Assembly (NCBI RefSeq): GCF_054482595.1
Contig: NZ_CM137008.1
Direction: 5' to 3' (one strand)
Length of the DNA: 64,000 nucleotides
Under the pieces are notes generated by a model. The model was not told the DNA's origin and did not search any database. It worked only from the letters and a program-made list of their open reading frames with translations. Shown here piece by piece: positions 1 through 43,000 of the stretch. A program made the position numbers and the translations under genes. Within the stretch, counting starts at the first letter, position 1. Every line of letters begins with the position of its first letter.

Positions 1-819
1 GACCATCCGAACCCTTTAGCCGCACGCCAGGCTATTTGCGACATATTCCTTAAACGCATCGTTAAAGGGAAAGGGCTGGATGTCATTGTTGATAAAACAG
101 GCGAAGAACCAATGCCGACACCATGGACGGTCTTTGAACTGGTCAAGGCAATCAGTAACGTCGATCACAGCTGGAAAGAGTTCATGCTGATCGACATGGG
201 CGGCGCAACCACCGATGTTTATTCCGCCTGTGCCAACACGCTCTCGCCCGACACCGTTTTACACGGCGTACCGGAACCCTTCGTAAAACGGACGGTGGAA
301 GGCGATCTGGGAATGCGCGTCTCGGCAGTGGTGGTTGGTGAAAGTGCGAAAGAGTTAGTCAATGTGAATTTTGCTCAGCAACCCGCACAGCTGGACGCTT
401 TTTATCATTACCTCCGTCATCTAGTCGCTCATCCCGACTACTTACCCGCAAATGCAGAAGAGAAATATTTCGATACCGTCCTGGCCGGACTGTGTGTGGG
501 TTATGCCACCGAAAGACATGCGGGCACCAAAAAAGAGGTCTGCACCTGCGTCGGCAATGTCGATTTACAGATGGGACGTGACCTGACAACCGTGCGTAAA
601 GTCGTCGGATCCGGCGGATGGCTCTCGCGTGCCAGTCAGTTCGATATGCATCACTGGTTGAAATTCCGCGAGTTAAACGACGACGGTAAACGCATTCTCT
701 TACCGACCGAATTTGAATATTACCGCGATTCCCGGGGGCTATTACCACTGCTGGCAAACGTCGCCAGAGTCGATCCGCTGGCCGCCGCGCGCACCAGTAT
801 TCAATGCTTAACCCTATAA
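1..819 (+). CDS. glmL: Glutamate mutase-associated protein GlmL/MutL (reactivating chaperone-like), 5'-truncated by the window edge
   Basis: Frame 1 is open from nt 1 to the stop at 817-819 (the listed ORF begins at an internal Met at 112). It lies directly upstream of glmE in the conserved glmL-glmE-mal order known from Clostridium glutamate mutase operons. Confidence 0.7.
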   Translation, partial: DHPNPLAARQAICDIFLKRIVKGKGLDVIVDKTGEEPMPTPWTVFELVKAISNVDHSWKEFMLIDMGGATTDVYSACANTLSPDTVLHGVPEPFVKRTVEGDLGMRVSAVVVGESAKELVNVNFAQQPAQLDAFYHYLRHLVAHPDYLPANAEEKYFDTVLAGLCVGYATERHAGTKKEVCTCVGNVDLQMGRDLTTVRKVVGSGGWLSRASQFDMHHWLKFRELNDDGKRILLPTEFEYYRDSRGLLPLLANVARVDPLAAARTSIQCLTL

Positions 820-837
820 CAATTAAGGCTGCAATCA

Positions 838-2283
838 ATGGAACTTCGAAATAAGAAATTAACCCATGACGAATTCATGACCGAGCGGCAACAGGTACTG
901 AAAACCTGGGAAACCGGCAAGGATGTTGAAAACTTTGAAGATGGCGTTAAATACCAACAAAACATTCCTGAGCATAAACGCTTCTCTCATGCCCTGCTGA
1001 AAGCAGACAAGGAAGGTAACACCCTTAGCCAACCGCGCGCAGGTGTGGCGCTGATGGACGAACACATCGAACTACTGAAAACACTGCAAGAAGAGTGCGA
1101 TCTGCTGCCGAGCACTATCGATGCATATACCCGTCTGAATCGGTACGAAGAAGCGGCTGTAGGGATTAAAAAATCCATCGAAGCCGGAACCTCTAAACTG
1201 AACGGTTTACCGGTAGTTAACCACGGCGTCGCAGCTTGCCGTCGCCTCACCGAAACCCTGCAAAAACCGCTACAGATCCGCCACGGCACGCCAGATGCGC
1301 GTCTGCTGGCTGAAATCTCGATGGCCAGTGGCTTTACCAGTTATGAAGGCGGCGGCATTTCCTACAACATTCCGTATGCCAAACGCGTAACGCTGGAAAA
1401 ATCGATCCGCGACTGGCAGTACTGCGACCGTTTAATGGGGATGTATGAAGAACACGGGATCCGCATCAACCGCGAACCGTTTGGCCCACTAACAGGTACG
1501 CTGATCCCGCCGTTTATCTCGCACTCTATCGCGATAATCGAAGGCTTGCTGGCGCTGGAACAGGGTGTGAAATCTATCACCGTTGGTTATGGACAGGTCG
1601 GCAGCCTGACGCAGGATGTTGCGGCGATCCAGTCTCTGCGTGAACTTGCACACGAATATTTTCAGAGCTATGGCTATACCGACTATGAATTAAGTACCGT
1701 GTTTCACCAGTGGATGGGCGGCTTTCCGGAAGACGAATCGAAAGCGTTCGCTATTATCTCATGGGGCGCAGCCGTCGCGGGGATGTCTGGTGCCACCAAA
1801 GTCATCACCAAAAGTCCGCACGAAGCCTGGGGCATCCCGACTGCCGCTGCCAACATTCAGGGGCTGAAAGCCTCCCGCCAGATGCTCAACATGGTCAACG
1901 AGCAGAAATTCCCGCCGTGCCCTGCGGTTGAACTGGAAATTGAACTGATTAAGAGCGAGGTTCGCGCGGTACTGAATAAAGTGTTCGAACTGGGTAATGG
2001 TGATATTGCGCGCGGTACGGTGCTGGCATTTGAAGCGGGCGTACTGGATGTGCCGTTTGCGCCAGCCGCCTGCAACGCGGGCAAAATTCTTCCGGTCCGA
2101 GACAACACCGGCGCGATACGCGTACTGGAAGCCGGAGCCGTTCCATTGCCAAAAGATATTCTCGACCTCCACCACGATTACGTTGCGGAACGCGCACGCT
2201 TTGAAGGACGCCAACCGACATTCCAGATGGTTGTAGATGACATCAATGCTGTATCCCACAGTAAATTAATAGGAAGACCATAA
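838..2283 (+). CDS. glmE: Glutamate mutase E (epsilon, catalytic) subunit, methylaspartate mutase
   Basis: 481 aa; the translation aligns along its length with my recollection of Clostridium GlmE (MEL.NKK..., PRAGVALLDEHIELL, GGGISYN.PYAK, TVFHQWMGGFP.DESKAF, SFQMV.DDI.AV). Stop overlaps the mal start (TAATG). Confidence 0.9.
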   Translation: MELRNKKLTHDEFMTERQQVLKTWETGKDVENFEDGVKYQQNIPEHKRFSHALLKADKEGNTLSQPRAGVALMDEHIELLKTLQEECDLLPSTIDAYTRLNRYEEAAVGIKKSIEAGTSKLNGLPVVNHGVAACRRLTETLQKPLQIRHGTPDARLLAEISMASGFTSYEGGGISYNIPYAKRVTLEKSIRDWQYCDRLMGMYEEHGIRINREPFGPLTGTLIPPFISHSIAIIEGLLALEQGVKSITVGYGQVGSLTQDVAAIQSLRELAHEYFQSYGYTDYELSTVFHQWMGGFPEDESKAFAIISWGAAVAGMSGATKVITKSPHEAWGIPTAAANIQGLKASRQMLNMVNEQKFPPCPAVELEIELIKSEVRAVLNKVFELGNGDIARGTVLAFEAGVLDVPFAPAACNAGKILPVRDNTGAIRVLEAGAVPLPKDILDLHHDYVAERARFEGRQPTFQMVVDDINAVSHSKLIGRP

Positions 2284-3524
2284 TGAAAATAAAACAGGCT
2301 CTGTTCACCGCTGGCTACTCCTCATTCTATTTCGATGACCAGCAGGCGATAAAAAACGGAGCGGGTCATGACGGCTTTTTTTATACTGGGGAGCCGGTAA
2401 CACAGGGGTTTAACACCGTACGTCAGGCCGGGGAGTGCGTATCGGTACAGTTGATTCTGGAAAACGGCGCGGTCGCTGTAGGTGACTGTGCTGCCGTACA
2501 GTATTCTGGGGCAGGTGGTCGCGATCCACTGTTCCTCGCAGAGCACTTTATTCCGTTCCTCAACGACCATATCAAGCCATTACTGGTAGGCCGCGATGTG
2601 GATGCTTTCCTGCCGAATGCCCGTTTCTTCGACAAATTGCGTATTGACGGCAACTTGCTGCATACCGCCGTGCGCTACGGATTATCACAGGCGCTGCTTG
2701 ATGCTACCGCGCTGGCAACCGGCCGTCTGAAAACTGAAGTGGTCTGTGATGAATGGCAGTTGCCACGCGTGGCGGAATCCATTCCATTATTTGGTCAGAG
2801 CGGCGACGATCGATATATCGCCGTCGATAAGATGATCCTTAAAGGCATCGACGTGCTGCCCCATGCGCTGATTAATAACGTCGAAGAGAAGCTGGGCTTT
2901 AAAGGTGAAAAACTGCGCGAATATGTCCGCTGGTTGTCGGATCGCATTCTAAGCAAGCGCACCAGCGCACGCTACCACCCTACCCTGCACATCGATGTAT
3001 ACGGCACTATCGGTCTGATCTTCGATATGGATACGCTTCGCTGTGCGCAATACATCGCCAGCCTGGAAAAAGAAGCGCAAGGCCTGCCGCTCTACATTGA
3101 AGGGCCGGTCGATGCCGGTAACAAGCCCGATCAAATTCGCCTGCTGACCGCGATTACCAAAGAGCTGACGCGCCTCGGTTCCGGCGTGAAAATTGTGGCC
3201 GATGAATGGTGTAACACCTACCAGGATATTGTTGATTTCACTGATGCCGCCAGTTGTCACATGGTGCAAATCAAAACCCCGGATCTGGGCAGTATTCACA
3301 ACATCGTCGATGCGGTTCTTTACTGCAATAGCCACAGCATGGAAGCGTACCAGGGCGGCACCTGCAATGAAACTGATGTCAGTGCCCGCACCTGTGTCCA
3401 CGTCGCCCTTGCCGCTCGCCCCATGCGTATGCTGGTAAAACCAGGGATGGGCTTTGACGAAGGCCTCGATATCGTCTTCAACGAAATGAATCGTACTATC
3501 GCGCTGTTGCAGGCTAAGGATTAA
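2283..3524 (+). CDS. mal: 3-methylaspartate ammonia-lyase (methylaspartase)
   Basis: 413 aa, N-terminus MKIKQALFTAGYSSFYFDDQQAIKNGAGHDGF... matches enterobacterial methylaspartase (Citrobacter-type) as I recall it; enolase-superfamily length; 1-nt overlap with glmE. Confidence 0.9.
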   Translation: MKIKQALFTAGYSSFYFDDQQAIKNGAGHDGFFYTGEPVTQGFNTVRQAGECVSVQLILENGAVAVGDCAAVQYSGAGGRDPLFLAEHFIPFLNDHIKPLLVGRDVDAFLPNARFFDKLRIDGNLLHTAVRYGLSQALLDATALATGRLKTEVVCDEWQLPRVAESIPLFGQSGDDRYIAVDKMILKGIDVLPHALINNVEEKLGFKGEKLREYVRWLSDRILSKRTSARYHPTLHIDVYGTIGLIFDMDTLRCAQYIASLEKEAQGLPLYIEGPVDAGNKPDQIRLLTAITKELTRLGSGVKIVADEWCNTYQDIVDFTDAASCHMVQIKTPDLGSIHNIVDAVLYCNSHSMEAYQGGTCNETDVSARTCVHVALAARPMRMLVKPGMGFDEGLDIVFNEMNRTIALLQAKD

Positions 3525-3527
3525 CAA

Positions 3528-4898
3528 ATGGCTCGTTCTTTTAAAGTCTTATCGCCAACGGCAATCCTCGGGTATGGATTCCCGGAAGAGAGCTTCCGCA
3601 AAGCGATGGCAGAATCGCCCGATCTGATCGCCGTTGATGCAGGCTCTTCCGATCCAGGCCCCCACTACCTCGGGGCAGGCAAACCGTTTACCGATCGCGC
3701 AGGGGTCAAGCGCGATCTGCGCTATATGATCACCGCAGGCGTGCAAAATAATATACCGGTGGTGATCGGAACGGCTGGCGGTTCTGGTGCCGCACCACAC
3801 CTGGAGTGGTGCCGAGAAATAATTCATGAGATTGCCCGGGAAGAGCACCTCTCGTTCTCGATGGCGTTGATCCCGGCAGACGTTGACAAAGCCATCGTCC
3901 ACCAGGCGCTGGATAACGGCAAAATCACGGCGCTGGATTTTGTCCCGCCGTTAACCCACGACGCGATTGACGAAAGTACGTATATCGTCGCGCAAATGGG
4001 CATCGAACCCTTCCAGCGGGCGCTGAAAGAACGCGCGCAAGTGGTGCTGGGCGGGCGCGCTTACGACCCGGCCTGCTTTGCTGCGCTCCCGATCATGCAA
4101 GGCTTTGATGAAGGTCTGGCGCTGCATTGTGGGAAAATCCTTGAATGCGCGGCAATCGCCGCAACGCCCGGCTCAGGCTCTGACTGTGCGATGGGCATCA
4201 TTGATGACAACGGCTTTACGCTGAAGACATTTAATCCGAAGCGTAAATTTACCGAAACGTCAGCAGCTGCACACACACTGTATGAGAAATCCGATCCCTA
4301 CTTCCTGCCAGGACCTGGCGGCGTGTTGAACCTGAAAGGCTGCACATTTAAAGCAGTCAATGACGGCGAAGTCTACGTCAGCGGTTCTAAGCATGAAGAA
4401 ACGCCGTATGCCCTGAAACTGGAAGGTGCACGACGGGTGGGCTTCCGCTGTCTGACCATCGCCGGAACGCGCGACCCGATTATGATCGCCGGGATCGATA
4501 AAATCATCGATGAAGTCAAAACCAGCGTTTCGCGTAACCTGTCGCTCGACGATGACAGCATTCGCATCAATTTCCACCTGTACGGCAAAAACGGGGTGAT
4601 GGGAGACCATGAACCGATGCAAACTGCCGGGCATGAGCTGGGGATTGTCCTTGATGTAGTTGCACCGACCCAGGAAATTGCCAACAGCGTTTGCTCGCTG
4701 GTGCGCTCTACCATGCTGCACTACGGCTATGAAAACCGCATCGCTACCGCAGGTAATCTGGCGTTCCCGTTCTCCCCTTCTGATATCCAGGGCGGGCCGG
4801 TATACGAATTTTCCATATATCACCTGATTGAAGCCAACGACGCTCTGCGTTTTGATTTCCATATTGAACAGGTGACGCCAGAAGGAGTTCAGGCATGA
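3528..4898 (+). CDS. DUF1446 family protein (AtuA-like), function unknown
   Basis: 456 aa; motifs resembling the AtuA/DUF1446 family (GGRAYDPACFAALP..., GKILECAA); starts 4 nt after the mal stop with no promoter space. Family assignment is from memory, not a search. Confidence 0.6.
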   Translation: MARSFKVLSPTAILGYGFPEESFRKAMAESPDLIAVDAGSSDPGPHYLGAGKPFTDRAGVKRDLRYMITAGVQNNIPVVIGTAGGSGAAPHLEWCREIIHEIAREEHLSFSMALIPADVDKAIVHQALDNGKITALDFVPPLTHDAIDESTYIVAQMGIEPFQRALKERAQVVLGGRAYDPACFAALPIMQGFDEGLALHCGKILECAAIAATPGSGSDCAMGIIDDNGFTLKTFNPKRKFTETSAAAHTLYEKSDPYFLPGPGGVLNLKGCTFKAVNDGEVYVSGSKHEETPYALKLEGARRVGFRCLTIAGTRDPIMIAGIDKIIDEVKTSVSRNLSLDDDSIRINFHLYGKNGVMGDHEPMQTAGHELGIVLDVVAPTQEIANSVCSLVRSTMLHYGYENRIATAGNLAFPFSPSDIQGGPVYEFSIYHLIEANDALRFDFHIEQVTPEGVQA

Positions 4899-5212
4899 AA
4901 CAGTCAATTGTCTCACTGGCGCAAGTCATTCGTTCGAAAAATGCCGGACCTTACGAACTGGTTTTAGATATTTTATTTAAAACGAAAGAAAACTATGAGC
5001 GAGTTAAATCATCAGGGCAATTAACCCCAGAACTGATTGCGCGCTTATATCATGTTGAACCTGACTTTATTCATCGTATTGTCTGGTTTGATCCTTCTAA
5101 CGCAGTAAAAATCGTCATGCCACGAGATATTATCTCCGGGAATGTAGGTGACAATGATGTCTATGGTGCACAGCAACATGCACCTTTATTAAATATGAGT
5201 TTCGATTTGTAA
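4895..5212 (+). CDS. DUF4387-like small protein, usual partner of DUF1446/AtuA-like proteins
   Basis: 105 aa; start ATG overlaps the stop of the upstream DUF1446 gene (ATGA), implying translational coupling; motif IRSKNAGPYELVLDI... resembles DUF4387 as recalled. Confidence 0.55.
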   Translation: MKQSIVSLAQVIRSKNAGPYELVLDILFKTKENYERVKSSGQLTPELIARLYHVEPDFIHRIVWFDPSNAVKIVMPRDIISGNVGDNDVYGAQQHAPLLNMSFDL

Positions 5213-5295
5213 AAATCCGAATACTTTTAGCCAACTGACATCCCGTCACTTATTGCAGTTCAACACTTCAGCTATTTGTAAGGTTGTAATAGCAG

Positions 5296-5327
5296 GTAGA
5301 TGCCTGAATCTCTATTCAGGCATCTAC
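5296..5327 (+). terminator. Perfect 14-bp-stem hairpin (gtagatgcctgaat-ctct-attcaggcatctac) followed by a U-rich tract; putative terminator/attenuator
   Basis: Read directly from the sequence between the DUF4387 stop (5212) and the transporter start (5373); arms are exact reverse complements. Confidence 0.5.
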
Positions 5328-5372
5328 TTCTCCTGATTCTGATTTATCGCCGTGCACCTGATGGAGGAAAAA

Positions 5373-6653
5373 ATGAAGACAATAAGTTTAACCACGATGA
5401 TTCTTTTGGCGCTGGTACTTGGAATGATTATCGGCGTAGTGCTCAATAACACTGCTTCACCGGAAACCGCAAAACTCTATGCGCAAGAAATATCGATATT
5501 CACGACGATTTTCTTACGACTGATAAAAATGATTATCGCTCCGTTAGTGGTCTCTACCCTGGTGGTAGGTATTGCTAAAATGGGCGATGCCAAAGCCCTT
5601 GGTCGTATTTTTTCTAAAACACTCTTTTTATTTATTTGCGCCTCATTGCTGTCAATTGCCTTAGGCTTGATAACGGTAAATTTCTTCATGCCAGGTACAG
5701 GAATTAATTTTGTTGCACACGGTGCCGAAACCACCGGAGTGGTCGCGGCAGAACCCTTTACGCTAAAAGTATTTATTTCGCATGCTTTCCCCACCAGCAT
5801 TGTCGATGCCATGGCGCACAATGAAATTTTGCAAATCGTGGTGTTCTCAATTTTCCTCGGCTGTAGCCTGACGGCGATTGGCGAGAAAGGCAGCGCCATC
5901 GTTCACGCCTTAGATTCGCTGGCACATGCCATGTTAAAGCTGACTGGCTACGTCATGCTCTTCGCTCCCCTGACCGTATTCGCTGCTATTTCAGCATTGA
6001 TTGCTGAACGAGGACTGGCAGTTATGGTGAGCGCCGGGATCTTTATGGGTGAATTTTATTTCACCATGTTATTACTTTGGGTGCTGCTTATCGGTCTGGC
6101 CATCGTTTATGTCGGCCCCTGCATCAGACGCCTGACCCGCGCCCTTTCGGAACCCGCCCTGCTGGCATTTACCACATCCAGTTCTGAAGCGGCTTTTCCG
6201 GGAACGCTTGAAAAACTGGAGCAATTTGGCGTTTCCCCCAAAATTGCCAGCTTTGTCTTACCCATTGGCTACTCATTTAATCTCGTTGGATCAATGGCCT
6301 ACTGCTCCTTCGCTACAGTTTTCATCGCCCAGGCCTGCAATATCCATTTATCCATCGGTGAACAAATCACCATGCTGTTGATCCTGATGTTGACCTCGAA
6401 AGGAATGGCTGGCGTACCACGCGCCTCAATGGTGGTTATCGCCGCCACGCTCAACCAGTTCAATATTCCGGAAGCGGGGCTGATCTTGCTGATGGGCGTT
6501 GATCCGTTCCTTGATATGGGGCGTTCCGCGACAAACGTCATGAGCAACGCAATGGGCGCTGCGATGGTGAGTCGGTGGGAAGGCGAACATTTCGGCGAGG
6601 GCTGTCGGGGTAAAGCATTAAAACCCAATGAATCGAACGTTGCTCTGCCCTGA
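5373..6653 (+). CDS. Dicarboxylate/amino acid:cation symporter (DAACS family; GltP/DctA-like), probable glutamate or C4/C5-dicarboxylate uptake
   Basis: Hydrophobic multi-TM translation typical of the GltP/DctA family. I chose ATG 5373 (MKTISL...) because GGAGG at 5363-5367 sits 5 nt upstream; the listed ORF starts at GTG 5352. Confidence 0.75.
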   Translation: MKTISLTTMILLALVLGMIIGVVLNNTASPETAKLYAQEISIFTTIFLRLIKMIIAPLVVSTLVVGIAKMGDAKALGRIFSKTLFLFICASLLSIALGLITVNFFMPGTGINFVAHGAETTGVVAAEPFTLKVFISHAFPTSIVDAMAHNEILQIVVFSIFLGCSLTAIGEKGSAIVHALDSLAHAMLKLTGYVMLFAPLTVFAAISALIAERGLAVMVSAGIFMGEFYFTMLLLWVLLIGLAIVYVGPCIRRLTRALSEPALLAFTTSSSEAAFPGTLEKLEQFGVSPKIASFVLPIGYSFNLVGSMAYCSFATVFIAQACNIHLSIGEQITMLLILMLTSKGMAGVPRASMVVIAATLNQFNIPEAGLILLMGVDPFLDMGRSATNVMSNAMGAAMVSRWEGEHFGEGCRGKALKPNESNVALP

Positions 6654-6760
6654 GGGGGATCTTAAGCAATCAGAAGCCAATGACTACGCATTTTTATAAG
6701 CCGGATCATGAAGTTAGACGGCAATTAAGTAACACTAACGTTTAAGGTGAAAAGTGAAAT

Positions 6761-8413
6761 ATGTCCAAACCATTTATCTGGCAAGAACCGTTTCTACAAA
6801 ATAAAGACGGTACAGAATATACATTAATTAGCGATCAGCATATTACAGTAACGGAATTAGACGGCGAAGAAGTGATAAAAATTGCTCCTGAAGCATTAAC
6901 GCTGCTTGCCCGGCAGGCATTTTATGAAGCCTCTTTTTTCTTACGTTCCGCTCATTTGCAACAGGTCGCCAGCATTCTTAACGATCCGCAGGCCAGTAGT
7001 AATGATAAATACGTTGCGTTGCAGTTATTACGTAATGCTGAAGTCTCAGCAAAAGGGGTATTACCCAACTGTCAGGATACCGGCACCGCAACTATTATTG
7101 CCAGTAAAGGGCAACAGATATGGACCGGAGGTAACGACGCCGAAGCCTTAAGCAAAGGCATTTACACCACTTTTCAGGAAAATAATCTGCGCTTTTCACA
7201 AAATGCGCCGCTGGATATGTATACCGAAGTCAATACGCAAACCAATCTCCCGGCGCAGATTGATATCAGCGCTGTCGCTGGTGATGTGTACCATTTTCTC
7301 TGTGTTAATAAAGGGGGCGGCTCCGCCAATAAAGCCGCGCTTTATCAGGAAACCAAATCCTTATTGCAACCAGAAAAACTGACCGCATTTTTAATCGAAA
7401 AAATGAAATCGCTGGGCACCGCTGCCTGCCCGCCTTACCACATCGCCTTTGTCGTCGGAGGGCTTTCAGCCGATCAAACCTTAAAAGTTGCCAAGCTGGC
7501 CTCAACGAAATATTACGACAATTTGCCCACCAGCGGAAACGAGCAGGGACAAGCATTCCGTGATATTGAGCTGGAAAAAGCGTTGCTCGAGGCCAGTCAG
7601 CAATTTGGTATTGGTGCACAATTTGGGGGGAAATATTTCGCTCATGATATTCGCGTCATTCGTCTGCCGCGTCACGGTGGCTCTTGCCCGATAGCTATGA
7701 CGCTCTCCTGTTCTGCCGATCGCAATATCAAAGCAAAAATTAACAAACACGGTATCTGGCTGGAAAAACTCGAACACAATCCGGGGCAATATATTCCAGC
7801 CTCATTGCGGGAAGAAAATCACGCGCAACATGTACAACTGGATCTAAACCGTCCGTTGCGTGACGTGATGCTGGATCTCGCCAGATTACCGGTAGGTACC
7901 CGCGTGTCGTTAAGTGGTCCCATCGTAGTGGCGCGCGATATCGCCCACGCCAAAATAAAAGCGCGGCTGGATAGCGGCGAATCGATGCCGGAGTACCTGA
8001 AGCATCATATTGTCTATTACGCTGGCCCGGCGAAAACACCGGAGAACATGGCCTGCGGTTCACTGGGTCCAACCACGGGCGGTCGAATGGACGGTTATGT
8101 CGATACCTTCCAGGCAGCTGGCGGCAGTCTGGTGATGTTATCGAAAGGTAACCGCAGCCAGCAGGTCACCGATGCCTGTCACAAACATGGCGGCTTCAAT
8201 CTGGGAAGTATTGGCGGTGCAGCTGCGTTACTGGCGCAAGAATATGTCAAAAGTCTGCGTTGCCTGGAATACCCGGAGCTGGGTATGGAAGCGGTGTGGA
8301 TGATGGAAGTGGAAAATCTGCCCGCATTCATCCTGGTAGATGATAAAGGCAATAATTTCTTTAGTCAGTTTGAGCAGCAACATCGCTGCGCCAGTTGCCC
8401 TGCGGGACATTAA
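6761..8413 (+). CDS. fumD: Class I (Fe-S) fumarate hydratase family protein, likely mesaconase/fumarase FumD
   Basis: 550 aa; N-terminal half with Cys-containing motifs (PNCQDTGTA) and C-terminal half typical of FumA/FumB-type hydratases; sits in the methylaspartate cluster, where mesaconate hydration is the expected next step. Confidence 0.8.
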
Positions 8414-8422
8414 GGAAAATGA

Positions 8423-9025
8423 ATGGAAGCGCGAATTTCAACTGAACGGCATGTGCAGCGCCAACAGAAATTGAAGGAACAGGTCGATACGCGCGTCGCA
8501 GCGGCGATAGAGAAAAAAGGGATCTTGATTGTTTTCACCGGCAACGGCAAAGGGAAATCCACTGCCGCGTTTGGTACTGTGACGCGCGCGGTGGGTCATG
8601 GCAAAACGGTGGGGGTTGCGCAGTACATCAAGGGGCAATGGGACAACGGCGAATACAACCTTCTCCAGCCGCTGGGGGTTGAGTTTCATATAATGGGAAC
8701 CGGTTTTACCTGGGAGACTCAGAACCGGCAAGCGGATATCGACGCGGCGAAAGAGATCTGGTCGGAAAGCAAACGGATGCTGGCTGACAAGCGTTACGAC
8801 TTAGTGGTGCTTGATGAGCTGACCTATATGCTGGCTTACCATTATCTGGATACCGAAGAAGTGATCGCTTCTCTGCAAAACCGCCCGGCACAACAAAGTG
8901 TCATTGTCACCGGACGCGGTTGCCACAGTCAGATATTAAAAATGGCGGATACGGTAAGCGAAATCCGCCCCGTCAAACATGCTTTTGATAACGGCATACA
9001 GGCCCAGCCGGGTATCGACTGGTAA
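8423..9025 (+). CDS. ATP:cob(I)alamin adenosyltransferase (CobA/BtuR family)
   Basis: 200 aa; P-loop region IVFTGNGKGKSTAAFG and overall similarity to BtuR/CobA as recalled; SD AAGGA upstream; 9 nt after the fumD stop. Confidence 0.8.
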   Translation: MEARISTERHVQRQQKLKEQVDTRVAAAIEKKGILIVFTGNGKGKSTAAFGTVTRAVGHGKTVGVAQYIKGQWDNGEYNLLQPLGVEFHIMGTGFTWETQNRQADIDAAKEIWSESKRMLADKRYDLVVLDELTYMLAYHYLDTEEVIASLQNRPAQQSVIVTGRGCHSQILKMADTVSEIRPVKHAFDNGIQAQPGIDW

Positions 9026-9032
9026 TAACTGC

Positions 9033-9051
9033 GCCTGGCATCCCGCCAGGC
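9033..9051. terminator. Short hairpin (gcctgg-N7-ccaggc) between the convergent stops of the adenosyltransferase gene and the LysR gene; possible bidirectional terminator
   Basis: Inverted repeat read from the sequence; the flanking U-tract is weak. Confidence 0.35.
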
Positions 9052-9058
9052 ACAGGTT

Positions 9059-9964
9059 TTACATCTCCTGCGGTACGACCGATTTCGCCAGCATCCATTC
9101 ACGAAATTGCTGCAAGTGCGGTGAGTCAGACTTCTCTTCCTGCCACGTCATAATAAAACGATTACCGGTACGAATAGGCACATCACAGGGGATCACCATA
9201 TCGCCACTATCCAAATCATGTTGAATAGCGAACCGTGGTAACAGCGCCACGCCGAGATTAGAGCGCACGGCGGCAATCAGCATTGAAAGCAAATCGAAAC
9301 GTGGTCCGTTATTGACCAGCGGACTGCTAACGCCAGATAAAGCAAACCACTCTTCCCAGCCAGTAATACGGGTGCTTTGATGCAGAAGCGGTAACTCAGT
9401 AAGCAGTTCTGCCACTGACAGCTTTTGATCGGACATTGCAAGCAAACTGCCGCTGCATACCGGCAAAATCTCCTCATCAAAGAGATATTCTACTTCCGCC
9501 CAGGGCGCGCAAAAATTTTCGCGCATAATGACAGCATCGTACTCCCGATTAAGAAAATCGCCGTTATTAGCTAAAGAATGAATATTAACAATAATATCGG
9601 GATGTAACTTTGTGAATTCATGTAAATTTGGGATCAACCAGTGGGTACTAAAAGTAGGATTAACGGCAAGTTCAATAACCTGAACCGTAGGCTGCCAGGT
9701 CATAATGGTATTGGTATCGCGTTCCAGCTTATTTAATGTTTCTTTTACTATCCCCAGGTAATACTTCCCTGTATCATTAAGAAAAATGCGTTTTTTAGAG
9801 TGTGAAAATAACGGAGTACGTAAAAATTCCTCCAGCGCACTTACTTGTCTGAATACTGCACTTTGGGTTAACGCTAACTCCTCTGCCGCTCTGGTATAAC
9901 TTTCATGACGTGCGACGACCTCAAAAGTCACCAGCAGTTCCGTTTTAGGTATTTTCCCTCGCAT
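9059..9964 (-). CDS. LysR-family transcriptional regulator
   Basis: 301 aa; N-terminal HTH typical of LysR-type regulators (FEVVARHESYTRAAEELALTQSAVFRQVSALEE) and a C-terminal substrate-binding-like domain. Confidence 0.85.
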   Translation of the reverse strand: MRGKIPKTELLVTFEVVARHESYTRAAEELALTQSAVFRQVSALEEFLRTPLFSHSKKRIFLNDTGKYYLGIVKETLNKLERDTNTIMTWQPTVQVIELAVNPTFSTHWLIPNLHEFTKLHPDIIVNIHSLANNGDFLNREYDAVIMRENFCAPWAEVEYLFDEEILPVCSGSLLAMSDQKLSVAELLTELPLLHQSTRITGWEEWFALSGVSSPLVNNGPRFDLLSMLIAAVRSNLGVALLPRFAIQHDLDSGDMVIPCDVPIRTGNRFIMTWQEEKSDSPHLQQFREWMLAKSVVPQEM

Positions 9965-10530
9965 AATGCCGTCCCTTAAAAATAGTTTAAACCATCAAAA
10001 ATACATTACTTATTACGAAGTAATGGTAACCAAAGCAGCAATAAATAATTTATAAGAATCATGATTGACATTTATAAACCAGTAAGGCTGGCGTGACAAA
10101 TATCTTAATCAGATAATAATAATCCGAAAAGCACAGCGCCTTTCGAATTATCCGGAATCACATTAAGTGAAAATTATTAAATTGATATCATTTATCATAT
10201 CTGTGGATATTATGATAAACAATCAACAAAGATTTTATTTTTGATTTATAGCATATCCATCTAAGAATTTTTGCGATGCTGCAATATCCGGGGTAAAGAC
10301 CCGATCCTGGCTGACAAATGGCACGACTTGACGAAAAGCGGTGAACATCGCTTTTGTTGATTTACTTAACGCTACGGTCAAACGCTGGGAAGCCAGTGCA
10401 TCAGGTAACGATTCGAAATTCGCCGTCGTTCTTATTCGTGGCTTGCGGTCGGTCGCGGCAATCCACAGTGGCTGTGGTCATGCAGTCAAGCCTGCAGTCA
10501 GATTTCGACCGTGGTTAACCGTTTAAGACA

Positions 10531-10557
10531 TAAAAAAGGCCATCATACGATGGCCAA
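10531..10557 (-). terminator. Intrinsic terminator of the sdh-suc operon
   Basis: GC hairpin followed by a U-run on the minus strand (A-run 10532-10537 on plus). Confidence 0.7.
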
Positions 10558-10630
10558 CCATGTCGAAACCGACAGCCCTTCGCCATTCCTGTAGAGGGAA
10601 GCGGCGAGGGCTATTTCTTATTACAGATAT
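10531..10630 (-). ncRNA. sdhX: sucD 3'UTR-derived sRNA (SdhX/RybD-like), ending at the sucD intrinsic terminator
   Basis: About 100 nt between the sucD stop (10631-10633) and a terminator hairpin (ggccatc-atacg-atggcc, 10538-10556) with a U-run on the minus strand. That SdhX is made from the sucD 3'UTR is established knowledge; identity was not verified by alignment. Confidence 0.5.
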
Positions 10631-11500
10631 TTATTTCAGAACAGTTTTCAGTGCTTCACCGATATCCGCCAGGCTGCGAACGGTTTTCACGCCTGCGGCT
10701 TCCAGAGCAGCGAATTTCTCATCCGCAGTCCCTTTCCCACCGGCAATGATGGCACCCGCGTGGCCCATACGTTTGCCTTTCGGCGCAGTCACACCAGCGA
10801 TGTAACCCACAACTGGCTTGGTAACGTGCTCTTTGATGTACGCAGCTGCTTCTTCTTCAGCGCTACCGCCGATCTCACCGATCATCACGATCGCTTCGGT
10901 CTGCGGATCTTTTTCGAACATTTCGAGAATGTCGATAAAGTTAGAGCCAGGGATCGGGTCACCGCCGATACCGACACAGGTCGACTGACCGAAACCGTAA
11001 TCCGTGGTCTGTTTAACCGCTTCATAGGTCAGTGTACCGGAACGGGAAACGATACCCACTTTACCCGGTTTGTGAATGTGACCCGGTTGGATACCAATTT
11101 TGCATTCACCCGGGGTGATAACGCCTGGGCAGTTCGGGCCGATCATACGAACGCCGGCTTCATCCAGTTTCACTTTCACAGTCAGCATATCCAGCGTCGG
11201 GATGCCTTCAGTGATGGTGATAATCAGTTTGATGCCTGCGTCGATGGCTTCCAGAATGGAGTCTTTGCAGAACGGTGCTGGTACGTAGATAACAGAAGCG
11301 GTAGCGCCAGTAGCAGCAACAGCTTCACGCACTGTGTTGAACACCGGCAGGCCGAGGTGGGTAGTACCGCCTTTACCTGGGGTTACGCCGCCAACCATTT
11401 TAGTGCCGTATGCAATGGCCTGTTCTGAGTGGAAAGTCCCCTGGCTACCGGTAAAGCCCTGGCAGATAACCTTGGTGTTTTTATCAATTAAAATGGACAT
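10631..11500 (-). CDS. sucD: Succinyl-CoA synthetase alpha subunit
   Basis: 289 aa, translation matches E. coli SucD as recalled ([45 protein letters not shown]...). Confidence 0.97.
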
Positions 11501-36942: not shown

Positions 36943-37200
36943 TCAATTATATTTTATAATTTGTTGTATTGCTGACTTTATATTGCCAATGACATCCTCA
37001 TCATTAAATTCATTTAATATATTTTTTAGAATAGGATGTAGTTTAATATCACCTAAAATACCTGCCAAAATAATAACTTCATCAAAAATTATGTTTTTTT
37101 GCAGTTCATAAATTATAGCAGTTATAACACGATTATCTTTTCTTTCTGCCAGTCCGCTTATAGCTTCAATTCTGGCACAATCATTCTTATCTGTCAGCAT
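36943..37200 (-). CDS. Hypothetical 85-aa ORF with HEAT/PBS-lyase-like repeat character; possibly a gene fragment
   Basis: AT-rich ORF just downstream of the H-rpt transposase gene; repeat-like segments (ARIEAISGLAERKDNRVITAIIYELQ). Weak support. Confidence 0.3.
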   Translation of the reverse strand: MLTDKNDCARIEAISGLAERKDNRVITAIIYELQKNIIFDEVIILAGILGDIKLHPILKNILNEFNDEDVIGNIKSAIQQIIKYN

Positions 37201-37212
37201 TCCAGGGCAAGA

Positions 37213-38349
37213 TTACGAAAGCCCGCTCCCCGCAAGGACTGACGCCAGATAGTTTCTGTCCATGGCTGCTTTTCGCATCTTACGTCTTAACCCTGCCTTG
37301 AATACCTTATCATTCGTCAAAATATTAATAGCAATGTGCCGTATCCCTGAAAATAATTCTGCTGCATTTCCTCTTCTTATTTTGCAGTCGTCTTCATTCA
37401 TTACCACGTCCAGACGCCAGTGCAGCTTATTCTCCACGTGCCAGTGGTTTCGGATTGCTGTGGCGAACTTCTCTGCGGTTAAATCAGCAGAACTGATATA
37501 ATATCTGACCGTCATTTCTGGCTCTTTCTTTTGTTCTGCTATTATGGACCGAAAGGAGACTGCCACGCATAATTTCTTCAGCCCTTTCCATTCAAACGTG
37601 AAATCAATAAGTTCATCAGGGACATCGCAAACATTATGAAGACGGATCTCTTCTCTGCCGTGACTCTTTTCACTCATTGCGTAACTGTCATGCTCTGGAT
37701 TATTTAATTCTTTCAGTGGAAATTTTTCCTCAAAGGCTTTATTAAGCCGCCCCTGATTTCCTTTTACAGCGAATAAATAATCACCGCCCTGTTTTTGTAT
37801 CTTCTCTGCGATATCTTTCTGGCAACCCATCGCATCAGTTGTGATAATTTTTCCTTTAATATCCAGCATGTTAAGAAGTTCAGGGATAGCTGTAATCTCA
37901 TTAGATTTCTCATCCGTCTTGATCTGTCCGATGACCAGACTGTGCATTGTTGAGAACGCACTAATGACATGAATCGCTCCCCTGCGGCGACTCTTGTCAT
38001 AAGAGTGCCGGAGCGTTTTTCCATCAATTGCAATGACGTCTTTATCATCTGAAGAATGGCAGTCACGCATCCAGTTAATAAAGCACTCGTGAAATTTTGC
38101 AGGACTGATACAGGATACAACTCTGGCAATGGTATCGTGAACAGGAATACCATTTTCAAAATCACCATATTGCTTCAAAAAATCGAGATGTGTTTCCCCA
38201 AAATCCTCTATATCTTCCCAGCCTTCTGCACCAGAAATAACGGCACAAATAGTCAACAGTAGAATATCCGATAATTTATGCTCCACTTTCCAGGCTTGTC
38301 TGTAATCAGGGATAATAGAAATATGTTCCATCAATTTTTTAAGTTCCAT
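37213..38349 (-). mobile_element. H-rpt (H repeat-associated) element of an Rhs locus: intact 378-aa ISAs1-family transposase-like ORF
   Basis: 378 aa, [64 protein letters not shown]... matches the YhhI/H-rpt protein family; element ends not determined. Confidence 0.85.
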
Positions 38350-38987
38350 TTTGTTCTCCTTAATTATGTAAGGAGTATTTGATCATGTATAAGCAATAAA
38401 AAACAGCTTCAGGTAATGAGGAATATCTCAATTTTTAAACATAAAATGCGAATTATTTAGTACAAAAAGTGAACTTCTGATGATCTTTCCCTGTGATTGC
38501 TTCCCGTTTCCCGATACGGCGGCGCGGGGAGTCATAAAGGTAAGAAATTTCCAGCAGTACAGCGTCCTATTGTTCACGGCGGTAATGCACCAACCAGTAT
38601 TGGCTATCGTAGTGATAACCGTGTAACCTGCCGCCGCATCGCGTATCTAATGTTCATTCTTTTCCATAAACCGTCCGTACACATTGTGATAGTAAAAATA
38701 CAATACATCTTCGCTGATGCGGTTATTCTGCTGCATGTGGGGAGCGCCGAATACTGCTCCCGGTATGGCCAGTAATTACTATTTAGTACGACGTTAGGGG
38801 GAGTCACTTAATCTCACAGATACTTCAAGTAACAGATGAAAATCGCTCCTGAAATGAAAAAAGAAATTTTTTTGAATGTGTTCCTGTCAAATCAAGTGGT
38901 TTTTTCGTCGATATGTAGAGTCATATTGTACACAAAATTGTTACGAAACACACCTTGGTAAAATATTTGAATCGACTGTACAGTGGA

Positions 38988-39290
38988 TTATTTTGTGTGT
39001 ATTACATTCAACACTTGCCCATCTTTTTTCGCTATTAGTATTGTAAAATTTCCTCCTAAAGTCTTCGGTTGTTTTCCCTCGATTTTCCAACAATTATTGT
39101 CATCTGTAATACTATATGGTTTCTGAAATTCTGCTTTTTCTTTCCCGTATACATATTTAATGTAAACATATGATAATTCCAAAGCCATTTCACGACTATT
39201 TACTAAAATTTCCACTGGATTTTCTTTTCCAAATACTTGTTATGATATTGTAAACAATATCATAATAAGTAATATTAGTGAGTTTCTCAT
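38988..39290 (-). pseudogene. Small secreted-protein ORF interrupted by an in-frame TAA at codon 17 (plus-strand 39240-39242)
   Basis: From ATG (39288-39290, minus strand) the frame reads MRNSLILLIMILFTIS-TAA-QVFGKENPVEILVNSREMALELSYVYIKYVYGKEKAEFQK...HTK. A signal-peptide-like N-terminus continues in the same frame across a single stop. Confidence 0.5.
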
Positions 39291-39458
39291 GTTCTACACC
39301 TATCGAATCTCAAAAGCTGTGGGTAAAACATTACATTCAGAATATATGATATTCTTACCATCGGAATCCATTTTTCCAAATCGACCTTCTGGTGTACCTG
39401 GATATCCATTAAGAACATGTTTTTCCGAATGGTTAATTTATTCTCTCAGGAAGATGTT

Positions 39459-40028
39459 TTATTTTTCTTCACTACGAAGCAGTTCATGCTGTATTTTTGT
39501 TAAACATTCGTAAGACTCATCTTTGTTCGGGAGATGTGCTGTCATTCGAGCATAAGTTGGCTTCTCATCTTTAAAATATTTAACCATGATTGAATTATCA
39601 AGGACTGCCAACAACTGAGCTGGATCACTGCTCTTTTTTTGATAGATACCCGCTCTTATATAACTTCTAAACCGATCGCCGAGAAACGCCGTTTTTTCTG
39701 CTGTATTTATCAACTCCTGCAACGTTCCTTTGATGGCATGATTTTCATTAAGGCGTAGTGACCCGACACGAATTAAGAGTCTCGCCCCGCTTGATGTGAA
39801 TTTATTATTTTTACATGTACCCAGTTCTGTTTGCCAATAATACTCACCGATGTCCTCATTCTGATACCATCTCCACATGGCTTTATTATTTAAGACAGGA
39901 AACGCGGAAAAAATAGTACCCTTAGCGAAAATAGTAAAACAATCATGATCTTTAGCTTGTATTTCGCAATCAGCTATAACACCAAAATTAACAAATATCA
40001 TCAGCAAAAAGAACAAAACTCTTTTCAT
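39459..40028 (-). CDS. Putative Rhs immunity protein (periplasmic; signal peptide)
   Basis: 189 aa, [19 protein letters not shown]|DCEIQ...; its ATG overlaps the rhs stop (ATGA); AT-rich like the Rhs C-terminal tip. It may correspond to K-12 ybfC, but this was not verified. Confidence 0.65.
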
Positions 40029-43000
40029 TTTCTTATTCCTCTCGATGTTCTCTGTTTCATTTTAGCTAAAATTTCACCCAAATCATCTATCCCTGCTGTT
40101 GCTGGCCCATCGGGTTTATTAATGTCTGGGAATAAATAGGGTTCTGCACAAGTATATCCTGGTGGTAATTGAGTTGTTGGCCAATTTGTCTGTGGCAGGT
40201 AATCACTTGCTGTCTTTGTATCCATCCCTGGATACTGGGGATCATCCTGTGGCGTACAAGTCAGATTTGGTTTTACCCACTTCCTGCAATACAGTGTGTA
40301 GTCGTAAGGGCTTAATGCTCTGAAGAATGTTTTGAAAACATTAGGCGCACTACTGGCCTGGTCAATAGGATATGGCAGTCTTAATTGTTTCGCTATGTCT
40401 GGCAATTTACTTGGATCGGGCGTAGGCGGTTTGTTGGGTCTCGCTCCATATCCGCCATTATTTAAGTGTCCATATTTTGATGCCAGTCCCATTGAATCTA
40501 TATACTGAACCGGATTCAACGGATACTGATAAAAATTCCATCCCCCCTTCAGTCCAATCGGATCCTGAGTGATATACCTCCCCTGCAGCGGGTCATAATA
40601 GCGGTGGCGGTTGTAATACAGGCCGGACTCCTCATCATACTGCTGACCCGGCAGGCGGATGAGCTGCTGCAGCTGGTGCGGGTTCTCTTCATTCAGCTGG
40701 TTACCCCATTCATCGTATTCTGCGTACCACGCTGTTGTCCCTTCCGTGCTGATAAGCGCCAGCGGCAGGCCGCGATGGTCGCAGTGGTACAGGTGGATTT
40801 TTCGCGCCGGCGTGTACACCGGGTCCATCTGGTTTTGCATCTGCTTCACCGTCAGGCCGCACGATGCCAGCCAGCGGCGGCTTTCCTCACTCACCCGGTC
40901 AGCCAGGATTTCACTTTCCAGCCGGTCGAGCATCTGCACCAGCACCGGCGGGAACACCACACTGCCACCGTCTTCACCGCCGGACTGCTGAAGGGCATCC
41001 GCCAGGCTGCGGCGCTGCGTTCTGGCCAGTTCACCGGTGGCAGTTTCAACTCTGATGAGTGGTGTGAAGCTCCCCGGCTGATAAATCGTCTGGATGCGGG
41101 TTCTGTCGTTCTGTATCGTGGTCAGGCGGTCGCCATCCCAGCCGTACCAGGTCACTTGCGGTTTCCGTGACAGCGACATCCAGCCCGTCAGGTCCCGTTC
41201 ACGTCGCCATACCCGTTTTGCCACCCTGCGGCCCAGCGGGTCGTAAAGATAGCGGCTTTCGACCAGCGGCTCTGCATATTGTGTCCGCGTGTAGTGCACC
41301 AGCCGGTGCTGACTGTCGTAATGGTACCGGTGGGTGCGCTCATCATCCGTGCGGATAACCCCTTCCGGGATGAGGTCGGTTTTCTCTGTCAGTCTGCCGT
41401 GACGGTCATACCGGTAAAGATAGTGCGCGTCACGGGCGATACGGTTATCCGGCCACATGCTGAGGGTGCTGTCCGGGTGCAGCTCCGGGTCGGGCAGGCG
41501 GTTACCTGCCGGGTCCGTGGCATACGGGATGCGGATATCAAGGTTCGCTGCCGTGGTGTGAACGCCGGTCAGCCTGCCGGAGTCGCTGTAGCTGTAACTC
41601 CGGGTATGGCGCGGGCTGCTGATGCGGATGAGTTCGCCGTTGTCGTTCCAGGTGTAATCGCGGTCAGACTGCAGGCTGTTCAGGTGCTGGCTCTGTAACT
41701 GCCCGGCAGGGGTATAAGCGGTGGTGAGTTCATAATGGCCGAAGCTGCGCAGCGTTTCCCGGTGCAGGCGGTCGCGGGTGAAATCCACCAGCGGTGTGTC
41801 GCCGAGCTTCATGCCTGACAGCCAGCCGCTGCCGTAGGTCAGCCATTCCACGGCGGGCAGGCTGTCCGGTATACAGCGGTTCGCCAGCCCCTGCGCGTTG
41901 TAAGCGTGTCTGGTCTCATGCTGCCAGAGCAGTGCTTCCGTCTGCGGGTGATGCACCGTCTGACGCTCACCGGTCAGGCGGCCTTTCTCATCATACCTGT
42001 AATGCACCGCTACCCGGTGCCCTTCGCTGATATGGCTGATGTCTGTCAGCCAGCCACGTTCGTCATACCGCCACCGCTCTGCGGTTTCACCCTTCACGGT
42101 GCGGTGCGTGAGGCGGTCTGCTTCGTCATAGTGCCAGTGGGTGACCAGACCCTCATCCTCGCTGCGGATAAGTTTGCCGGTCAGGTCGTGGTGATAATGC
42201 TGTGTGCGGCCGTCAAAGCCGGTTTCCTGTATCAGCCGGTCGAGTACATCGTAACGGAAGGTGGTGTGGCTGCCGTTTTCACTGGTCAGGCGGATGACCC
42301 GTCCGGCAGCATCGTATTCCATACTGCGCGTCAGACCGCCCTGCGTGGTACGGATGGCCTTTCCCCACGCATCGTACTGTGTCCCGTTTCTGCTGCCGTC
42401 CGGAGCAATGACGGCGGTCAGGTCACCGGCGGCGTTGTATTCATACCGCATTTCATGGCCCTGCATGTCTTTCACGGCAATTAACCGTCCACGGCTGTCG
42501 TATGCGCGGTACTGACTCAGCCCTTCCTCGCGGTGCACCGCCGTCATCTGCCCGAAACGGTCATGGTCATAACGGGTTACATAACCGGAACAGTCGGTGA
42601 AGCTCAGCAACTGGCCGTAACGGCTCCACGTCATGGTTTTCCGGCTGCCGGTGGCATCGTCCGTTGCGCAGGGTAAGTCACTGTGTGGATTATCATAACG
42701 GTAGCGGGTGATATCGCCGTCAGGGGCGGTTTCCTGAATCAGACGGCCGGATTCATCATATTCCCGGCGCATTTCCAGCCCGTCAGGCCCGGTGGCTGAC
42801 GTTAACTGGCTGTGGTGGTTATAGTAAAATGCCGATGCCCTGCCATCCGGTGTGGTGATGCGCGTGATGAGTCCCGTCACCACATCCGGGCTGTATTCTG
42901 TTGTCCGGCCTGCGGCATCCGTCTGTGCCTTAAGCCTGCCCACCGCATCAAACTGACTCTGCGTGACGCTGCCGTCCGCGTGTTCCTTTTTCACCACCCG

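Follow-up and report, generated by a model that had tools for sequence, protein, structure and literature searches.

The glmS gene and candidate promoter expected upstream of a window-cut glmL in the known methylaspartate-pathway cluster of Escherichia coli

What precedes a gene that is entered halfway by the first base of a sequence, and how far can the missing part be supplied from close relatives? The stretch of DNA analysed here (64,000 nt, referred to below as the window) raises this question, as its frame 1 is free of stop codons from base 1 onwards and runs for 272 codons before it reaches a TAA at positions 817-819. The original prediction held that this frame is a glmL gene cut by the window edge, and that the operon promoter and glmS, a gene for a B12-binding protein of about 140 aa that normally precedes glmL, are not visible and should lie upstream; it further took the surrounding segment to be an island.

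The family match of the open frame confirms the first of these claims. On the evidence of TIGR01319 (528.7 bits, cutoff 204; model positions 186-456 of 456) and Pfam MutL, PF13941 (E 1.4e-72; positions 185-446 of 450), window 1-819 is the C-terminal 59% of a genuine glmL and no chance ORF. The equivalog NF040745 gives 278 bits, below its cutoff of 475, because 190 GlmL residues are missing from the fragment; the full-length GlmL of E. coli XH990 scores 510.5. In that genome glmL encodes 462 aa (L001 11431-12819, where L001 denotes XH990 locus coordinates and L001 12001 corresponds to window base 1), with the 5' 570 nt (i.e. 190 codons) falling outside the window, and in the common part the two proteins differ by one residue. 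A T for A at window 665, which is private to the window and not present in XH990, results in GlmL Y412F. The gene is encoded between those for the S and E subunits of the mutase (glmE at window 838, glmS upstream in relatives), and the end coordinate of 837 that had originally been given to the feature is explained by the glmE ATG at 838. For GlmL itself no solved structure was detectable by sequence, and its role as a reactivase/chaperone acting on glutamate mutase is presumed. Neither glmS nor the operon promoter was found in the window, as had been claimed, and a scan of the + strand of window 1-837 yielded no sigma-70-like or terminator-like site. The features at this end of the window are the following.

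1..819, + strand: 3' part of glmL (methylaspartate/glutamate mutase accessory protein GlmL/MutL), codons 191-462 plus TAA; TIGR01319, PF13941
820..837, + strand: glmL-glmE spacer of 18 nt with a ribosome-binding site, AAGG, at 825-828; read from the sequence
838..2283, + strand: glmE, glutamate mutase catalytic E (epsilon) subunit, 481 aa, intact; TIGR01503, 863 bits, model 1-480
2283..3524, + strand: mal, methylaspartate ammonia-lyase, 413 aa; TIGR01502, 543.8 bits, and Pfam MAAL_N and MAAL_C
3528..4898, + strand: AtuA-like (DUF1446) protein, 456 aa; PF07287, E 9e-19
4895..5212, + strand: DUF4387 protein, 105 aa, start overlapping the stop of the AtuA-like gene; PF14330, E 2.6e-39
5373..6653, + strand: GltP-like dicarboxylate/amino acid:cation symporter; PF00375, E 2.8e-102, and annotation
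6761..8413, + strand: fumD, class I fumarase/mesaconase; Pfam Fumerase and Fumerase_C
8423..9025, + strand: cobO/cobA-type ATP:cob(I)alamin adenosyltransferase; PF02572, E 5e-64
9059..9964, - strand: LysR-type transcriptional regulator (LTTR), convergent with the operon; HTH_1 and LysR_substrate domains
9965..10523, no strand: right end of the segment that is absent from K-12, i.e. an AT-rich region upstream of LysR and, after it, GC-rich non-coding DNA (10290-10523); blastn, base-level junction alignment
10524..10630, - strand: 3' region of sucD shared with K-12 (sdhX sRNA in K-12), terminator hairpin at 10555-10538; K-12 comparison

The whole window is colinear with E. coli XH990 (NZ_CP019359.1), with 17 substitutions and no indels, and positions 1-5300 are matched in 1131 of 5426 complete E. 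coli genomes. The best matches, AHM21C2872I and W619, score just under a perfect 25-kb match, which is consistent with a few mismatches, and the closest genomes differ from the window by about 3 SNPs per 25 kb; over positions 1-5300 the top 13 genome matches carry one mismatch each and the collection holds no exact match. The upstream layout presented here is extrapolated from these near-identical relatives (99.97% identical) and not read from the source genome. In XH990, W619 and AHM21C2872I the upstream order and the encoded proteins are identical, GlmS and GlmL included, and in XH990 the layout reads as follows.

Left of the orphan ORFs, opposite strand: cydA (genome comparison)
L001 8986-9930, upstream of the window: hypothetical ORF, 314 aa
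L001 10012-10434, upstream of the window: hypothetical ORF, 140 aa
Between the 140-aa ORF and glmS: AT-rich intergenic region of 547 nt, which would hold the control region of the operon
L001 10982-11431 (-1019 to -570 from window base 1): glmS, 149 aa

There is, judged from these relatives, a high probability that the same gene order holds in the source genome. The cydA upstream region that is shared with K-12 would then end about 3,445 nt before window base 1, and would be followed by about 430 nt of very AT-rich DNA, the 314- and 140-aa orphan ORFs, the 547-nt intergenic region and glmS. Overall, it is in our view very likely that window 1-819 is the window-cut glmL of the known methylaspartate-pathway cluster, preceded by the layout found in its relatives.

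By its family and structural matches, the 149-aa ORF upstream of glmL is GlmS, the B12-binding S (sigma) subunit. The protein (WP_021556604.1) is identical in XH990, W619 and AHM21C2872I, and, tested on these closest genomes, was matched by the equivalog NF002612 ('methylaspartate mutase subunit S'; 253.5 bits, cutoff 110); it also matched TIGR01501 (246.2 bits, cutoff 135.8) and the Pfam B12-binding family PF02310. The DxHxxG motif of base-off/His-on cobalamin binding provides the histidine ligand to cobalt, and D14-C-H16-A-V-G19 of GlmS aligns with this motif in 1i9c_A and 1cb7_A, the GlmS chains of Clostridium cochlearium (E about 1e-49; 1.3e-49 for 1i9c_A). The glmS stop codon (TGA, L001 11429-11431) overlaps the glmL ATG (11431-11433) by one base in the configuration TGATG, which suggests that the two genes are translationally coupled.

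The expectation of an upstream glmS of about 140 aa is thus borne out by the intact gene in the three closest genomes, and the premise that glmS normally precedes glmL holds in 13 out of 13 loci from other enterobacterial species. These loci were collected by scanning a single genome per species for relatives of GlmL, and cover Escherichia clades, E. whittamii, Citrobacter, Klebsiella, Lelliottia, Salmonella diarizonae and Pseudescherichia, together with two metagenome bins that are labelled Collinsella and Citrobacter and have an E. coli-like sequence. Within E. coli, glmS DNA is present in 1135 of the 5426 complete genomes, in all of them at >=95% identity and in 1134 at >=80% coverage, and its carriers are the same population as those of the rest of the cluster (1135 versus 1131 for window 1-5300). 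The original prediction had expected both the glmS ORF and the junction with the core genome to be found within 2-3 kb upstream of the window; in the relatives the ORF does lie within this range, whereas the K-12 junction lies about 3.44 kb away and hence beyond it, because the two orphan ORFs are situated between the cydA region and glmS.

For these orphan ORFs (35-42% G+C) no matches were found in Pfam, NCBIfam or PADLOC, and a comparison with PHROGs gave only one, insignificant match (E 0.11). Their homologues form only five clusters, all of close relatives (65-96% identity), the sole named one coming from E. coli. Both ORFs are absent from the loci of Klebsiella, Pseudescherichia and E. 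whittamii and are fragmented in Escherichia sp. MOD1-EC7003; an AlphaFold model was unusable (mean pLDDT 45).

The region in front of glmS is poorly conserved as a whole, with a mean identity of only 62% in an alignment of the 365 nt upstream of glmS from 13 genomes. It does contain a 21-nt box, TTTTGAAAATAGATCAATTGC (L001 10848-10868; 114-134 nt before the glmS ATG and 1153-1133 nt upstream of window base 1), which, bar one T/C position, does not vary among 13 sequences that represent 6 genera. The box holds a GATC site and a dyad, TGA-N7-TCA, of the T-N11-A type that is bound by LysR-family regulators. This dyad, TGAAAATAGATCA (L001 10851-10863), is invariant in the 13 sequences and is centred 44 nt before a near-invariant TATTAA (L001 10901-10906; 81 nt before the glmS ATG and 1100-1095 nt upstream of window base 1). 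Box and TATTAA are separated by exactly 33 poorly conserved nt in 11 of the 12 sequences that yielded a -10-like hexamer, with an invariant ACACT in between. If TATTAA represents the -10 element, the dyad would be centred near -56 and the -35 region would be weak, as expected for an activator-dependent promoter. Transcription probably begins at a promoter of this kind upstream of glmS.

Generic searches of the same region were negative: a sigma-70/terminator scan of the 547 nt upstream of glmS gave no match on the + strand, with counts equal to those in shuffled sequences, and Rfam revealed no cobalamin riboswitch or other family in the glmS upstream region (E<=1) or in window 1-11000 (gathering threshold). 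RNAalifold detected no conserved structure in the 90-nt leader over 13 species, although in each of them a GC hairpin is folded directly behind TATTAA.

The glmS promoter would most likely be served by the LysR regulator of the cluster, the gene of which is found with the cluster in E. coli, Salmonella, Enterobacter and Yersinia. In E. coli this gene lies beyond cobO, at the distal end, and is convergent with the operon; only in Yersinia is it divergent from the glm-containing operon. On this basis and given the type of the dyad, TTTTGAAAATAGATCAATTGC may tentatively, and with considerable doubt, be assigned as the operator of the regulator; if the assignment is true, the box provides a direct handle on the question why the expression conditions of the enterobacterial glutamate-mutase pathway remain unfound. 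In Yersinia the box is not kept within 3 mismatches, only the core ATCAATTG being left. The locus of Yersinia enterocolitica (L021) is rearranged: the LysR gene, with fumD-cobO behind it, is divergent from those for SUMT, a GHMP-kinase, GlmS and GlmL, so that cobalamin-synthesis genes are fused into the glm operon.

Two other regulatory assignments were considered. A possible autoregulatory operator, TTAAAAATAGTTTAA, 12 nt upstream of the LysR ATG (window 9976-9990), was downgraded: it is a 3-mismatch match to the box, of which 1.65 are expected by chance per window, and the site is not conserved upstream of the Salmonella LysR gene. A reading of the box as an FNR/CRP site was rejected on the spacing of the half-sites, as TTGA and TCAA are 7 nt apart in the box and the half-sites of the FNR/CRP consensus are 6 nt apart. 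The Yokenella LysR homologue P0084 turned out to be a paralogue that lies outside any glm cluster.

The cluster as such is already known, and the observation from which we started is a routine window-edge note on a published cluster. Kronen and Berg (2015, PLoS One, PMC4682846) described the same cluster in O157:H7, and reported it in 26.5% of E. coli and in 90.6% of O157:H7 strains. Gene identity and order are shared with the cluster as given in that paper (GlmS, GlmL/MutL, GlmE, Mal, DUF1446, DUF4387, GltP, FumD, CobA/CobO and LTTR; here glmS-glmL-glmE-mal-DUF1446-DUF4387-gltP-fumD-cobO plus the convergent LysR gene), and so is the chromosomal site, from cydA to sucD. The cluster enzymes have 98-100% protein identity to those of an O157:H7 genome (e.g. 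98% for FumD), and the differences are only at the strain level: the upstream DNA is 98.9% identical, the 314-aa hypothetical protein is 95% identical and the Y412F of the window GlmL is private. In the parts of PMC4682846 that were available, the two orphan ORFs, the junctions and the upstream box are not discussed.

At a greater distance, the S-L-E order is shared with glmS-glmL-glmE of Clostridium cochlearium and mutS-mutL-mutE of C. tetanomorphum (PDB 1cb7, 1ccw, 1i9c). GlmS is matched at E 1e-49 with the DxHxxG motif kept, and GlmE over its full length at E about 1e-190 (1cb7_B, and 6h9e_B at E 6e-191). The clostridial clusters, as described in PMC4682846, contain a two-subunit mesaconase, MesAB, and genes for citramalate lyase. 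In the enterobacterial cluster their place is taken by FumD, which is single-chain, together with DUF1446/DUF4387, a symporter, an adenosyltransferase and an LTTR, and there is no citramalate lyase.

Based on the characterised Clostridium enzymes and the work on FumD of O157:H7, which was characterised as a mesaconase (PMC4682846), the following mechanism can be inferred. GltP (the name given to the symporter in PMC4682846), likely a glutamate importer, would take up glutamate, after which GlmS and GlmE would form an adenosylcobalamin-dependent mutase that yields (2S,3S)-3-methylaspartate, with GlmL as its presumed reactivating chaperone and CobO adenosylating, in this scheme, the imported corrinoid. 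Mal would then remove ammonia from methylaspartate to give mesaconate, and FumD would hydrate mesaconate to (S)-citramalate, the fate of which was left unknown by Kronen and Berg (PMC4682846). The start of mal overlaps the stop of glmE by 1 nt. The AtuA-like gene is located downstream of mal in every related locus that is long enough to show it, and the DUF1446/DUF4387 pair (window 3528-5212), with its overlapping stop and start, follows mal in all of these loci. A whole-word literature search found no functional study of DUF1446/DUF4387, and the pair readily suggests itself as a candidate for whichever step beyond mesaconate or citramalate is unexplained. The inducer of the cluster, the fate of citramalate and the role of DUF1446/DUF4387 are questions that were posed earlier in the literature.

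In terms of structure, the mutase of this lineage is complete, as the S, L and E subunits, the lyase, the mesaconase, the adenosyltransferase, the transporter and the regulator are all intact. A view that is compatible with this structural explanation, and which we consider quite possible, is that the genes are intact and the cluster is ordinarily cryptic or silenced, e.g. by H-NS acting on the upstream DNA of 28-42% G+C, with a function only in a special niche where an external corrinoid and an unknown inducer are at hand. It would fit with the report that in O157:H7 neither expression of the cluster nor Mal activity nor a growth benefit was detected under any condition tried (PMC4682846), with the very AT-rich character of the left 2.4 kb, and with a -35 region that is weak and non-conserved and gives no consensus sigma-70 match. 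Nevertheless, all genes show purifying conservation between genera (74-97% aa identity), which argues for regular use somewhere, as does the invariant upstream box.

Both ends of the variable segment in which the cluster resides could be fixed by comparison with K-12 MG1655, the left one about 3.44 kb before the window begins and the right one at window ~10523. At the left end, the sequence that XH990 and MG1655 have in common stops at L001 ~8556 (blastn), about 3,445 nt upstream of window base 1 and 373 nt upstream of the K-12 cydA ATG, that is inside the cydA upstream region; similarity decays gradually there, in AT-rich DNA. At the right end, the shared sequence resumes at L001 ~22524, i.e. 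window ~10524, adjoining the sucD/sdhX terminator hairpin, and the junction is sharp and coincides with the position of the K-12 mngR stop codon. A segment of 13,967 bp thereby takes the place of a K-12 segment of 5,929 bp with mngR-mngA-mngB, the genes for 2-O-alpha-mannosyl-D-glycerate utilisation, which occupy the same interval from the sucD/sdhX terminator to the cydA upstream region and are unrelated to the genes of the glm cluster. The mngRAB segment is found in 3887 of the 5426 genomes versus 1135 for the glm cluster, and mng is absent from the locus in XH990 and in O157:H7 Z1835.

Two observations concern the junctions themselves. Comparison of L001 8181-8556 with K-12 771085-771458 shows that the two have no more than the 373 nt in front of the cydA ATG in common, and as a consequence more distal control elements of cydAB, if there are any, differ between cluster-positive and K-12-like strains. 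On the right, about 230 nt of GC-rich DNA (window 10290-10523) contain no credible ORF and have no similarity to MngR; the stretch may be what is left of an older gene. A tblastn search for remains of mngR at this junction found nothing.

With the ends in place, the notion of an island can be weighed. It applies only loosely: it stands as far as the patchy presence among strains is concerned (1131-1135 of 5426 genomes, with cydA and sucD as flanks), and it does not stand with respect to mobility genes, tRNA and flanking repeats. In XH990 and O157:H7 Z1835 no integrase, tRNA or IS element is annotated in the cydA-sucD interval, and no 9-mer is common to the two junctions. The base composition is mixed. 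At 51-57% G+C the enzyme genes resemble the core genes next to them; AT-rich are only the left 2.4 kb (28-42% G+C) and the DUF4387-gltP region and LysR end (34-47%).

The genome context in other genera points in the same direction. Klebsiella, Salmonella, Citrobacter sedlakii and Pseudescherichia likewise carry the cluster in the suc-cyd interval. On its left it borders on cydA in three Klebsiella species, Pseudescherichia vulneris and three non-coli Escherichia, loci in which the two orphan ORFs are absent or pseudogenised; on the right, the LysR gene of Salmonella adjoins sucD. In C. sedlakii (L015 1-5552) mngB, mngA and mngR, 83-86% identical to those of K-12, are located directly upstream of glmS, and this side-by-side presence of mng and glm argues for differential loss and against simple insertion. 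Lelliottia, Enterobacter and Yersinia have the cluster at other places, next to cobalamin-biosynthesis or other genes, which implies that movement has also occurred. Most simply, mng and glm can be read as accessory modules that lie side by side in an old suc-cyd interval and were differentially retained, or exchanged by means of flanking homology.

That the segment would instead be a recently acquired foreign genomic island, as opposed to an old and patchily retained suc-cyd module, we consider rather unlikely. Its presence in only ~21% of the E. coli genomes, the AT-rich segment ends and orphan ORFs and the other locations in Lelliottia, Enterobacter and Yersinia would agree with recent acquisition, yet they have to be set against the failure to find an integrase, tRNA, IS or junction repeats, the core-like composition of the enzyme genes, the conserved neighbours, namely cydA on the left in Klebsiella, Pseudescherichia and the cryptic Escherichia clades and sucD on the right in Salmonella, and the coexistence of mngB-mngA-mngR and the glm module in C. 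sedlakii.

The start of the window within glmL might also be read as a physical truncation, that is a contig end or an insertion that interrupts the gene in the source assembly. The window taken by itself would be compatible with either; the reading is nevertheless very improbable, as the window measures exactly 64,000 nt and is colinear with complete chromosomes without an indel, the break does not fall at a recognisable repeat or IS end, and the frame runs on seamlessly in every relative. The gene is cut because the 64-kb window happens to begin inside it.

Also very improbable is the reading of a decayed cluster in which glmS was lost or disrupted upstream, leaving a mutase that is unable to bind B12: the upstream layout is indeed taken from relatives and not from the source, one of the 1135 genomes (ST2747, H70) has only 72% of glmS aligned and the window GlmL carries its private Y412F, but glmS is full-length at >=95% identity in 1134 of the 1135 cluster-bearing genomes, GlmS is intact and identical in the three closest ones and all nine downstream genes in the window are intact, the other cluster genes being full length and without any sign of decay.

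The substitutions that separate the window from XH990 are not evenly spread, as 8 of the 17 are located within 172 nt of a GC-rich Rhs core gene (window 41978-42149). The pattern resembles a short tract of recombination or gene conversion between copies of Rhs; adjoining the tract are AT-rich genes for Rhs tips and immunity and an ISEc1 transposase (window ~37000-40000).
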